A stretch of 64,000 nucleotides of DNA, from positions 17,867-81,866 of the forward strand of contig CAYVAJ010000003.1 in the NCBI GenBank assembly GCA_964448725.1, read 5' to 3'. Positions 37,038 through 38,980 of this stretch are shown one piece after another. The translations under genes were made by a program, and so were the position numbers. A model generated the notes under the pieces. It did not search any database. It saw only the letters and a list, made by a program, of their open reading frames with translations, and was not told where the DNA came from. Each line of letters starts with the position of its first letter. The first letter of the stretch is position 1. This stretch comes from an uncultured Gammaproteobacteria bacterium. GTDB lineage: Bacteria; Patescibacteriota; Microgenomatia; Levybacterales; GWA1-39-11.

Positions 37038-37385
37038 ATGGCTAAAAAAATATTAACAGGAACAGTAGTTTCAGACAAAATGACAAATACCGTTGTAGTG
37101 GAAGTGGAGCGACGCATCGTGCATCCGCTCTATAAAAAACGGATTAAAATCACAAAAAAATATAGTGCTGACACAAATGGTATAGCAAGTGCAGTTGGTG
37201 ATTTTGTAAAAATTGAAGAAACAGTGCCAATGAGTAAGACAAAACATTTTAAAGTAATTGAAAAGATTGTAGAAATTACACCAGAAGGGGAAAAGACAAC
37301 GGCACAAAAAAACGAAAAATCAACTGAAGAAAAAAAGCCTGCCAAAAAGACTCGGGCAAAGAAAGGAGAAAAAGATAGCAAATAG
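37038..37385 (+). CDS. rpsQ: 30S ribosomal protein S17 with K/E-rich C-terminal extension
   Basis: ILTGTVVSDKMTNTVVVEVERRIVHPLYKKRIK OB-fold signature. Confidence 0.92.
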   Translation: MAKKILTGTVVSDKMTNTVVVEVERRIVHPLYKKRIKITKKYSADTNGIASAVGDFVKIEETVPMSKTKHFKVIEKIVEITPEGEKTTAQKNEKSTEEKKPAKKTRAKKGEKDSK

Positions 37386-37447
37386 CGGGTAGCAGGTAGC
37401 TTATAGAAGCTACAAGCCACACGCCAAAAGCTATACGCTAAAAAAAT
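37377..37447 (+). repeat. copy 1 of a ~65-nt intercistronic hairpin element (rpsQ-rplN)
   Basis: AGCAAATAG-CGGGTAGCAG-GTAGCTTATAGAAGCTAC-AAGCCACACGCCAAAAGCTATACGCTAAAAAAAT; 7-bp perfect stem at 37396..37413; includes the rpsQ stop. Confidence 0.9.
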
Positions 37448-37822
37448 ATGGTACAGTTACGAACAATGTTAGAATCCGCTGACAATAGTGGTGCAAAAGA
37501 ACTTATGGTTATTCAAATATATGGCGGATCACGCCGCCGATTTGGATATCTTGGTGAAACGCTTGGATGTATTGTAAAACGGGCGTTACCAAATGGTGAG
37601 TATAAAAAAGGAGATTTAGTAAAAGTAGTATTAGTACGAACAAAAAAAGAAGTCCGGCGCTCTGATGGCTCATACATTCGATTTTCAGAGAATGCTGGAG
37701 TTGTTATTAATAGTCTTGAAAATAAAGATCCTGTTGGAACACGTGTATTTGGTCCAATTGCACGCGAAGTACGAGAAAAAGGATTTACAAAAATTGCGAG
37801 TTTGGCAAAAAATGTAGTATAA
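37448..37822 (+). CDS. rplN: 50S ribosomal protein L14
   Basis: MVQLRTMLESADNSGAKELMVIQIYGG... classic L14. Confidence 0.95.
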   Translation: MVQLRTMLESADNSGAKELMVIQIYGGSRRRFGYLGETLGCIVKRALPNGEYKKGDLVKVVLVRTKKEVRRSDGSYIRFSENAGVVINSLENKDPVGTRVFGPIAREVREKGFTKIASLAKNVV

Positions 37823-37863
37823 GTAGCCTTGCAATGAGGCTTATAGTATAATAGTATATAGTT

Positions 37864-38169
37864 ATGAAAATAAAAAAAGGTGATTTAGTACAAGTAATGA
37901 TGGGTAAAGATAAAGGAAAGACCGGAAAGGTTGAACGAGTTTTGCCTGCCAAAAATAAAGTAGTGGTAGAAGGCCTGAATCTGTATAAAAAGCATATTAA
38001 AGGATTTGGTGGACAACAAGCATCAGAGATAAAAACTTTAGCACGGCCACTTCCGGCATCAAAAGTTGCGCTTATTGATCCTAAAACTAAAAAGCCTACT
38101 CGTGTGAGTTATAAAATTGAAAAAGACGCAAAGGTAAGAGTTGCCAAAAAATCTGGCCAAACAATATAA
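37864..38169 (+). CDS. rplX: 50S ribosomal protein L24
   Basis: MKIKKGDLVQVMMGKDKGKTGKVERV KOW motif. Confidence 0.93.
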   Translation: MKIKKGDLVQVMMGKDKGKTGKVERVLPAKNKVVVEGLNLYKKHIKGFGGQQASEIKTLARPLPASKVALIDPKTKKPTRVSYKIEKDAKVRVAKKSGQTI

Positions 38170-38172
38170 ATT

Positions 38173-38286
38173 ATGAAAGTACAAGCATCAGTAAAACCAC
38201 GTTGTATGAAATGCAAAATCGTACGACGAAAAGGAAAAATATTTGTAATATGTGAGAACCCTAAGCACAAACAGCGACAGGGATAG
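38173..38286 (+). CDS. rpmJ: 50S ribosomal protein L36 (37 aa), not in the ORF track
   Basis: Manual translation [37 protein letters not shown] matches the L36 zinc-ribbon consensus almost residue for residue; non-canonical position between rplX and rplE. Confidence 0.9.
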
Positions 38287-38316
38287 AAAATTAGTGACGA
38301 TTGACTATTTCAAATA

Positions 38317-38348
38317 TTCAATCATCAAATAATAAATAAGCAATAAAT
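38317..38348 (+). repeat. leader motif A copy (rplE)
   Basis: ATTCAATCATCAAATAATAAATAAGCAATAAATT 4 nt before the ATG; preceded by GTGACGATTGAC right after the rpmJ stop; no SD. Confidence 0.8.
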
Positions 38349-38352
38349 TATT

Positions 38353-38919
38353 ATGAGTAATTATAAAAAAGCATATAACACAGAAATAGTACCAAAGCTG
38401 CAAAAACGGTTGGATATTAAAAATCCGATGGCAGTACCTAAACTGCAAAAGATTGTGGTAAATACAAGTACTCGTGAGTTTTTGCAGGACAAAAAAAATA
38501 TTGAACGGTACGCAGAAGAGTTAGTGACTATTACAGGCCAGAAGCCAAAAGTTGCAAAAGCAAAGATTTCTGTTGCAACATTTAAGCTGCGTGAAGGGGA
38601 TGATATTGGATTGGTTGTTACATTGCGTGGTAACAGGATGTATGATTTTTTTGAGAAACTTGTTAAAATAGTCCTTCCTCGAGTGAAAGATTTTGGAGGA
38701 GTAAGTCGTGAATCATTTGATGGTCATGGGAATATGACTATCGGGTTTTCAGAACAGACAGTTTTTCCAGAGATAGATCCTGGGCGAGTTGACCGTATTC
38801 GAAGTCTGCAGCTTGTGTTGGTAACGACTGCAAAAACTAACGAACAAGGACTTGCATTATTGGAAGAAATGGGAATGCCGTTTAAAAAAGTACAAAAGGA
38901 GGAAGCAAGTAGCAAATAG
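38353..38919 (+). CDS. rplE: 50S ribosomal protein L5
   Basis: L5 signature (KNPMAVPKLQKIVVN...GLVVTLRG..MYDFFEKL). Confidence 0.95.
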   Translation: MSNYKKAYNTEIVPKLQKRLDIKNPMAVPKLQKIVVNTSTREFLQDKKNIERYAEELVTITGQKPKVAKAKISVATFKLREGDDIGLVVTLRGNRMYDFFEKLVKIVLPRVKDFGGVSRESFDGHGNMTIGFSEQTVFPEIDPGRVDRIRSLQLVLVTTAKTNEQGLALLEEMGMPFKKVQKEEASSK

Positions 38920-38980
38920 TGGGTAGCACGTAGCTTATAGAAGCTACAAGCCATTCGCCATAAGCTATACGCTAAAAATT
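38911..38980 (+). repeat. copy 2 of the ~65-nt intercistronic hairpin element (rplE-rpsN)
   Basis: About 58 of 64 positions identical to copy 1, including the terminal codons AGC AAA TAG; stem GTAGCTT-ATAG-AAGCTAC at 38930..38947. Confidence 0.9.

Follow-up and report, generated by a model that had tools for sequence, protein, structure and literature searches.

Paralogous hairpin elements between Shine-Dalgarno sequences and start codons in a Levybacteria ribosomal-protein operon: a possible split ribosome-binding site

Introduction

Split ribosome-binding sites, in which a Shine-Dalgarno (SD) sequence lies far upstream of its AUG and a hairpin shortens the interval between the two, have been described for a few genes of phage T4. 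According to a review, folding reduces the spacing from 22 nt to 5 for gene 38 and from 27 nt to 11 for gene 25, at the 26-25 junction (PMC3014915, reviewing Nivinskas 1999; Malys & Nivinskas 2009), and relatives without the hairpin are also without the split arrangement (PMC3014915). The present work concerns a 64-kb stretch of DNA (hereafter, the window; 36.5% G+C) from a member of the Levybacteria (Microgenomates, candidate phyla radiation or CPR), which carries the S10/spc/alpha ribosomal-protein (r-protein) cluster on its + strand and whose nearest matches among public proteins bear the name Levybacteria. In this cluster, a hairpin-forming element occupies both the rpsQ-rplN and the rplE-rpsN junctions. 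The segments are true paralogues, copies of one intercistronic hairpin cassette located between SD and ATG. With a probability of roughly 0.45, this cassette forms a hairpin-bridged split ribosome-binding site, and its copies have been exchanged between junctions. All functional statements made here are based on sequence analysis of this one window and of about ten fragmentary relatives (L015, L017 and so on).

The likeness to T4 genes 25 and 38 lies in an SD that is far 5′ of the AUG (for gene 25, also at an intercistronic junction) and in a hairpin that, in T4, shortens the spacing to 5-11 nt. In both copies of the element, the SD is more than 15 nt from the start codon, and relatives devoid of the element have an SD at normal spacing. 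There are also differences. The intervening RNA measures 42-136 nt here and 22-27 nt in T4; it consists of heptamer arrays that hold the upstream stop codon; and it is found at many junctions of a cellular r-protein operon, between which copies appear to pass. In addition, the arrangement is known here from sequence alone.

Other described systems resemble the element in some of its features. Arrays of the heptanucleotide TAACTGA are located just 5′ of starts that lack an SD, including those of r-protein operons, in Beggiatoaceae, Cyanobacteria and Bacteroidetes (PMC4679880). Like these arrays, the element has a 7-nt period, adjoins starts without a nearby SD, and carries in-unit stop codons that limit read-in by open reading frames (ORFs). 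However, the TAACTGA units are repeated directly and almost perfectly, and no structure is predicted for them, whereas the element is degenerate, has complementary halves that form a hairpin, and presents a strong SD at its foot. Comparable heptanucleotide repeats are the cyanobacterial short tandemly repeated repetitive (STRR) sequences; the head-to-tail 7-nt periodicity of both classes is found in the element, while its units are not near-identical. Repetitive extragenic palindromic (REP) sequences and bacterial interspersed mosaic elements (BIMEs) are likewise short imperfect palindromes of transcribed intergenic sites and are able to stabilise mRNA. Nevertheless, REPs are dispersed, number in the tens to hundreds and are associated with RAYT transposases, whereas the element is confined to the space between SD and ATG within a single operon, always in the same register, and within the 64-kb window it does not occur as many dispersed copies. 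Finally, in E. coli, the spc operon is autoregulated by S8. The element shares with r-protein leaders, such as the E. coli spc S8 site, the condition of a structured RNA in the spc region beside a translation start, and differs from them in matching no Rfam family, in being dispensable to close relatives and in preceding several unrelated cistrons.

Anatomy and folding of the two copies

The identities of rpsQ, rplN, rplE and rpsN follow from the Pfam assignments (S17, L14, L5 and S14) of identical proteins in public contigs. A repeat search of the window pairs positions 37376-37444 with 38910-38978 in an ungapped match of 64 of 69 positions (93% identity); for the spacers by themselves (rpsQ-rplN against rplE-rpsN), 55 of 62 positions are equal. 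The match between the two segments is far beyond chance. The copies and their parts are as follows:

37376..37447, + strand: copy A, at rpsQ-rplN; found by the repeat search; 101 bits with the covariance model described below
38910..38980, + strand: copy B, at rplE-rpsN; found by the repeat search; 103 bits with the covariance model; this is the junction common to most relatives' copies
37431..37447, + strand: 3′ module CTATACGCTAAAAAAAT of copy A, an unpaired A-rich leader that extends up to the rplN ATG (37448)
37375..37434, + strand: extended hairpin of copy A; −22.4 kcal/mol, z −4.0; none of 200 shuffles is equally stable; kept in the wide-context fold
38904..38973, + strand: extended hairpin of copy B; −24.6 kcal/mol, z −4.0; apical stem-loop at 38930-38947

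Both copies begin with T AGC AAA TAG, which provides the final two codons and the stop of the upstream gene (stop codons at 37383-37385 in rpsQ and 38917-38919 in rplE). Further on, both carry the perfect hairpin GTAGCTT-ATAG-AAGCTAC, with a 7-bp stem and the loop ATAG, at 37396-37413 and 38930-38947, and both end in the tail CTATACGCTAAAAA, at 37431 and 38965, which reaches the ATG of rplN (37448) and of rpsN (38981). The original prediction, which was made from the letters of the window, had pointed to the near-identical segments, to the AGC AAA TAG ending of rpsQ and rplE, and to the perfect hairpin, and all three are present in both copies.

Divided into sevens, copy A reads TAGCAAA TAGCGGG TAGCAGG TAGCTTA TAGAAGC TACAAGC CACACGC CAAAAGC TATACGC TAAAAAA. 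The element is an array of degenerate heptanucleotides, with (TAGCnnn)n in its first half and (nnnGCTA)n in its second. At lag 7, copy A has an identity of 0.62 and copy B of 0.58, against 0.28 and 0.26 in shuffled sequences, and none of 5000 shuffles reaches the observed values. The units share just 2-4 of 7 positions, and the element is not called by Tandem Repeats Finder. Because the left half is made of TAGC repeats and the right half of GCTA repeats, the array is self-complementary and its transcript would fold as a hairpin. Moreover, a TAG every 7 nt in the 5′ arm places a stop in all three frames, so that an upstream ORF ends within the element. Consequently, S17 and L5 carry the same Ser-Lys-stop, as both ORFs terminate inside the 5′ arm. 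The copies differ in a few states; copy A carries cacacgcc, common to L032 and L028, and copy B carries cattcgcc, common to L030. Recoding, by frameshifting or by stop read-through driven by the hairpin, was considered and rejected: the sequence lacks a slippery heptamer, and a further TAG in frame is met 7 codons on.

The predicted structure is a hairpin of 60-70 nt with internal loops, which extends from the last sense codons to 7-13 nt before the AUG and leaves the A-rich tail unpaired. In copy B, 7 nt (AAAAATT) separate the end of the hairpin from the rpsN ATG (38981). In an alignment of nine copies, which was fitted to the covariance model, 87.7% of the cells are paired, and both sides have changed at 6 pairs, against 1.8 in shuffles.

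Promoter and terminator scans found no sigma-70 promoter and no terminator-like site at either copy. The stem is followed by AAGCC, with no U-tract. The suggestion that the element is an attenuation site is thus not borne out. Internal-promoter and leaderless-transcript readings of TATACGCT were likewise rejected. A search against Rfam 15, which includes the r-protein leaders, returned no family at its gathering threshold in the window, and none with E<=10 that overlaps the element within 36900-39300.

Distal Shine-Dalgarno sequences

The strength of an SD is expressed here as the energy of its duplex with CACCUCCUUU, a canonical anti-SD that is assumed and that may differ from the 3′ end of the organism's own 16S; an SD is called strong at −8.9 kcal/mol or below. 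On this scale, each copy is preceded by an SD in the last codons of the upstream gene:

37361..37369, + strand: SD-like GAAAGGAGA, in rpsQ codons K-G-E; −9.0 kcal/mol; probability of pairing 0.04; 78 nt before the rplN ATG
38895..38903, + strand: SD AAAGGAGGA, in rplE codons K-E-E; −11.5 kcal/mol; probability of pairing 0.09; 77 nt before the rpsN ATG

In folds of the 150-nt context, the SD is unpaired (probability of pairing 0.03-0.2) and is located directly 5′ of the hairpin. It had been stated originally that the two starts have no SD. This stands for the 15 nt before each ATG and fails further upstream, where a strong SD is found at the foot of each hairpin, some 80 nt away.

Distal SDs are not restricted to these two junctions. 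When SD-like windows are sorted by their distance upstream of starts, they peak at 0-14 nt, are depleted at 15-54 nt, and rise a second time at 55-99 nt. The peak at 0-14 nt supports the use of SDs in this genome. For operon genes that are followed by a spacer of at least 28 nt, a strong SD occurs in the last 35 nt of 9 out of 18, against 4.0% of interior windows (p 1e-8). The same trend is observed in the relatives, with 10 of 35 such genes against 4.1% of interior windows (p 1e-6). By contrast, only one of 28 genes without a co-directional downstream neighbour ends in a strong SD, compared with 11 of 36 (Fisher p 0.0055). At the level of codons, the KKGE/AAAGGAG tail of rpsQ is also present in relatives, and the AAG GAG of the L5 tail is kept in 7 of 7 relatives, AAG and GAG accounting for 20% and 29% of their synonymous sets.

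If the hairpin folds, the distal SD is brought to within a short distance of the AUG. Of 25 junctions inspected, 24 have a single hairpin in the space between SD and AUG. In 24 of the 25 junctions pooled for comparison with shuffles, a linear distance of 42-136 nt is reduced to 2-21 unpaired nucleotides; the exception is rpsH-rplF of the window, at 35 nt. For the rplE-rpsN copies, folds of −20 to −27 kcal/mol in silico leave a spacing of 7, 8, 8 and 11 nt, close to the T4 values; copy B goes from 77 nt to 7 nt. At rpmC-rpsQ and rplM-rpsI, two junctions of the window with degenerate copies, the interval goes from 56 nt to 16 nt and from 58 nt to 12 nt, respectively. For comparison, the canonical SD spacing of this genome, by the same measure, is 0-14 nt. 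Summed over the 25 pooled junctions, some of which are non-independent orthologues, the collapsed distance is 317, against 437 ± 46 in dinucleotide shuffles (P 0.003).

The element in relatives

Genomes of relatives were gathered through their S17 and L5 homologues, and their junctions were read one by one. The copies found, all of which are recovered by the covariance model, are the following:

rplE-rpsN: L017, L030, L032 and L031; the hairpin tip is identical at 18 of 18 positions in L017 and L032 and at 17 of 18 in L030, and is a GTAG/CTAC variant in L031
rpmC-rpsQ: L028 (full copy) and L022 (right arm only)
rpsQ-rplN: L028 (a 23-nt remnant)
rpsC-rplP: L022, a copy after an unchanged S3 stop, directly 3′ of AAAGGAGAA

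The element is therefore found at four different junctions across lineages, and it is absent at these junctions from L015, L023 and L024. Among these, L015 is the closest relative of the window in a tree of L5 and S14. The idea that the element has moved between junctions is upheld by this distribution. It is also a genuine duplicated element in the window, where the 5′ end of both copies is inside the upstream coding sequence. The cassette is specific to this Levybacteria clade.

Junctions without the element are informative about its position. At these junctions, a gap of 4-6 nt separates the same SD from the ATG, as observed at rplE-rpsN of L015 (AAGGAGTAAGTATG) and at rpsQ-rplN of L022 and L029 (GGAGGAGGCTAAATAATG). 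In turn, the rpsC-rplP copy of L022 follows its SD with no change to the S3 stop, which indicates that the element fills the interval from SD to ATG and not merely that from stop to start. The sequence of the element is also constrained. Between lineages, the copies have an identity of 78-90%, compared with 47-58% at the four-fold sites of rplE and rpsN on either side.

The original prediction also held that the element had reshaped the 3′ ends of two genes, and proposed an alignment of the C-termini with those of orthologues. This alignment agrees with it in part. L5 ends in ...KE* in L015, where the element is absent, and in ...KEEASSK* wherever the element is present. Similarly, where the element is at rpmC-rpsQ, L29 ends in ...SSK* and ...GSK* (L028 and L022). 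The end of S17 has also changed, from ...GE-SK* (TCT AAG TAA) to ...GE-KDSK* (AGC AAA TAG). Nevertheless, S17 of L015 and L017 ends in SK* (TCT AAG TAA) with no element at that junction; thus, the tails of L5, L29 and S17 have been altered, while the Ser-Lys end of S17 predates the element.

Degenerate copies and heptamer arrays in the window

A covariance model built from six copies was run on the 64-kb window. It recovers two full and two degenerate copies, all of them at r-protein junctions, and none elsewhere. The degenerate copies are:

36973..37037, + strand: degenerate copy at rpmC-rpsQ; 28.9 bits, E 3e-4; weak hairpin
48930..48996, + strand: weak relative at rplM-rpsI; 27 bits, E 1e-3; hairpin present

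Both follow the plan of the full copies. In the first, GGAGGAGG is found at 36973-36980, within rpmC codons and 5′ of the weak hairpin, and the 3′ module at 37021-37037 is the same as that of copy A. In the second, GAAGGAGGA is found at 48930-48938, within rplM codons, and the tail CTCTACGCTAATAATTT adjoins the rpsI ATG (48997). Shorter 3′ portions of the element had been reported before rpsQ and rpsI, and they are readily found: the 21-mer CTATACGCTAAAAAAATATGG is identical at 21 of 21 positions at 37021 (5′ of rpsQ) and 37431 (5′ of rplN), and it has an 81% match at 48980 (5′ of rpsI).

Two further observations concern the rpmC-rpsQ junction. A perfect 14-nt tandem duplication, GCTAAAAAAATATG followed by GCTAAAAAAATAT, covers 37027-37053 across the rpsQ start, so that the N-terminus MAKK is the leader repeated. 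In L015 and L017, unlike the window, rpmC and rpsQ overlap by 8 nt.

Seven-nucleotide periodicity is not limited to the element. In the window, intergenic autocorrelation peaks at lags 7, 14 and 21, and coding DNA is without these peaks; Tandem Repeats Finder calls about 25 arrays of period 7, mostly intergenic. The remaining operon spacers have a lag-7 identity of 0.50. Many of them hold inverted heptamer arrays with other 4-nt cores (TGAC/GTCA or TTGA/TCAA), followed by AATAGTCAATAAA before the ATG:

32853-32932, 35626-35705, 39577-39640, 41541-41617 and 45811-45878: spacers with TGAC/GTCA or TTGA/TCAA inverted arrays

A strong SD stands at the 5′ foot of such arrays at rplC-rplD and at rplV-rpsC, and none is found at rplO-secY. 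The element is thus one instance of a wider heptamer-array habit of this genome.

The habit includes arrays outside the operon spacers. A perfect (AAACCCT)x8 array at 18358-18414 overlaps the stop of the gene at 17353-18366, and the next start is 28 nt further. AAACCCT is the plant-type telomere repeat, and the related unit CTAAACC occurs in arrays of L031; in this setting, the array looks like a homogeneous member of the heptamer habit and not like a telomere. Separately, the 306-nt spacer between convergent genes at 19542-19847 holds tandem 9- and 17-nt units (GTTTATAAA and similar) together with 13 copies of TAATAAA.

Interpretation and alternative explanations

The anatomy, the stability of the fold, the distribution among relatives, the constraint on the sequence, and the excess and retention of SDs are observed; we infer from them that ribosomes may use the bridged SD, and how the element may be copied between junctions. 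In the proposed mechanism, folding of the hairpin would bring the far SD to a working distance from the AUG. Thus, SD-dependent initiation, or re-initiation by a terminating ribosome, would survive the insertion on rpsN and, less well, on rplN. The inserted array probably originated by 7-nt replication slippage. Its copies would then move among nearby junctions, where gene conversion or template switching would homogenise them, and the shared SD and the A-rich/ATGG ends could provide the microhomologies for the exchange.

Several observations weigh against this bridged ribosome-binding site. Some of them concern the role of SDs in general. Only about 15% of crude gene calls in the window have a proximal SD. 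Starts in the window have a T at −1 in 65% of cases and are A-rich from −9 to −3, a Kozak-like and SD-poor context, with strong SDs concentrated at r-protein junctions. The 3′ tail of the element resembles this A-rich start leader, and hence rplN and rpsN might start without any SD; the energies given above also depend on the assumed anti-SD. Others concern the structure. The fold leaves 5 + 13 = 18 nt in copy A, which is a poor fit to canonical spacing and marginal with respect to T4. Taken one junction at a time, the distances left after folding do not improve on those of dinucleotide shuffles (P 0.15-0.6), and the pooled value draws on orthologues that are not independent. In an unfitted six-copy alignment, RNAalifold gives a covariation term of +0.98, which is essentially no signal, and a comparison of fold energy between sense and antisense divides the copies four each way, with no strand preference. 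Finally, similar heptamer hairpins are present at junctions without a strong SD (rplO-secY and rpmJ-rplE); therefore, SD bridging cannot be the sole reason for the hairpins. The 18-nt hairpin tip is also conserved in sequence beyond its pairing, loop included. Bridging does not need that, and a tip recognised by a nuclease or a binding protein would account for such conservation no less well.

These last two points are those expected of a hairpin for mRNA processing or stability. In such a case, a site for RNase III, E or Y, or a barrier to 3′-exonucleases, would segment or protect the r-protein transcript independently of any SD. The hairpin is stable and conserved and occupies intercistronic positions only, and a protein that recognises the tip would explain why its loop is conserved. 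However, a processing site leaves unexplained the enrichment of SDs at the 5′ foot and their conservation at the level of codons, and it gives no reason for the element to start always right after the SD. Close relatives also do without the element at equivalent junctions. This explanation is unlikely.

An alternative of similar standing, and equally doubtful, is that the element is a functionless by-product. Slippage and palindrome-correcting template switching would make arrays, gene conversion would copy them, and they would be tolerated because rplN and rpsN start from the A-rich leader, the SD being a relic or serving another use. The generality of seven-nucleotide arrays in the spacers of this genome (lag-7 identity of 0.50, and the perfect eight-unit AAACCCT array), the patchy presence of the element among close relatives, and the lack of a proximal SD in most genes are all in agreement with this view. 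Furthermore, heptamers have been reported as the commonest long simple repeats of bacteria and credited to slippage (Mrazek 2007, as cited in PMC4679880). Nevertheless, the identity of the copies, well above that of four-fold sites, points to purifying selection, and four lineages have the same hairpin tip at 18 of 18 positions. In addition, the SD codons are kept in every lineage that bears the element, and distal SDs are linked to having a co-directional gene downstream; neither would be expected of a by-product.

It is considerably less probable that a regulator which binds RNA in a sequence-specific manner uses the element as its operator; such a regulator could be an r-protein from the spc operon, with feedback on the translation of rpsN-rpsH and rplN. 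The conserved sequence of the apical stem-loop across lineages would suit such a regulator, and the location in the spc region, 5′ of rpsN-rpsH, recalls S8 autoregulation in E. coli. However, no Rfam leader family matches, the close relatives L015, L023 and L024 lack the element at that junction, and copies precede the unrelated genes rplP, rpsQ, rplN and rpsN.

Least probable of all is a miniature mobile element, MITE- or REP-like and spread by a transposase, which had also been suggested originally. In its favour, four different junctions are occupied across lineages, and the element is a palindrome whose GTAGC motifs resemble the GTAG head of REPs. However, the copies that the covariance model finds in the 64 kb are all inside the r-protein cluster, and orientation and register with respect to the genes are the same in all copies. 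Similarity stops at the SD on one side and at the ATG on the other, and neither terminal inverted repeats nor target-site duplications are present. Scans for the exact hairpin in 185,579 species-representative genomes (GTDB) and in JGI metagenomes, collections that do not include the source genome, gave no related copies.

In those scans, the exact 18-nt hairpin has two matches among the GTDB representatives, both due to chance, and eight in the JGI metagenomes, which belong to an unrelated repeat with different flanks and no Rfam match. In L005-L011 (JGI contigs Ga0160428_*, Ga0160429_*, Ga0068631_103839 and Ga0115846_100350), the hairpin GTAGCTTATAGAAGCTAC lies inside a conserved repeat of the form ...gctatctatctatatag..ggctgtaagacaagaac[hairpin]g..., which has no relation to the Levybacteria element; one of the contigs, of 43 kb, carries it twice.

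Other features of the window

Some features of the window lie apart from the element. The gene rpmJ (L36, 37 aa; 38173-38286) is located between rplX and rplE, and not after secY/infA; the same arrangement is found in L015, L017, L025, L031 and L032. Between rpsJ and rplC, an ORF at 30673-31332 encodes 219 aa and has homologues in L015 and L024 without a Pfam assignment. A strong terminator-like hairpin followed by a T9 run (GGAAGCGACTC-AGG-GAGTCGC-TTTTTTTTT) is present at 31906-31935, about 40 nt 5′ of rplC, and may act as an attenuator.

An RNase P RNA of the bacterial class A is found at 61334-61679 on the + strand (E 1e-16). Its score of 57.5 bits is below the gathering score of 100, and for this reason the default Rfam scan missed it; it is probably a reduced RNase P RNA of the CPR type. 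A 22-nt palindrome, TATCGTAGTCTAGTCTACGATA, occurs twice, at 50409-50430 and 50859-50880, in the spacers 5′ of two minus-strand genes.

Implications

Split ribosome-binding sites and heptamer arrays were already known separately. What is new is the putative combination of the two, in which heptamer arrays supply the hairpin that bridges an SD to its start within an r-protein operon of a cell, and in which this arrangement is copied from junction to junction. A broader and rather speculative version is that these elements represent an undescribed class in Levybacteria, self-copying SD-to-AUG junction cassettes in which heptamer-array hairpins are inserted between SD and start and exchanged among r-protein junctions, and in which split sites would be a routine means of operon-wide translational coupling. 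A specific factor might, in addition, recognise the conserved tip of the hairpin.

Two cautions for annotation arise from these observations. A distal SD may hide at junctions that are described as SD-less, and short lineage-specific C-terminal tails of r-proteins, such as SSK and ASK, can be pieces of an array into which the upstream ORF has read. If the bridged SD is correct, an arrangement of a few genes of phage T4 would serve at several places in a CPR bacterium's most highly expressed operon. Intercistronic insertions would then be tolerated, and even copied, provided that the RNA folds them away, and the unexplained heptanucleotide arrays 5′ of starts in several bacterial phyla would gain a testable role.

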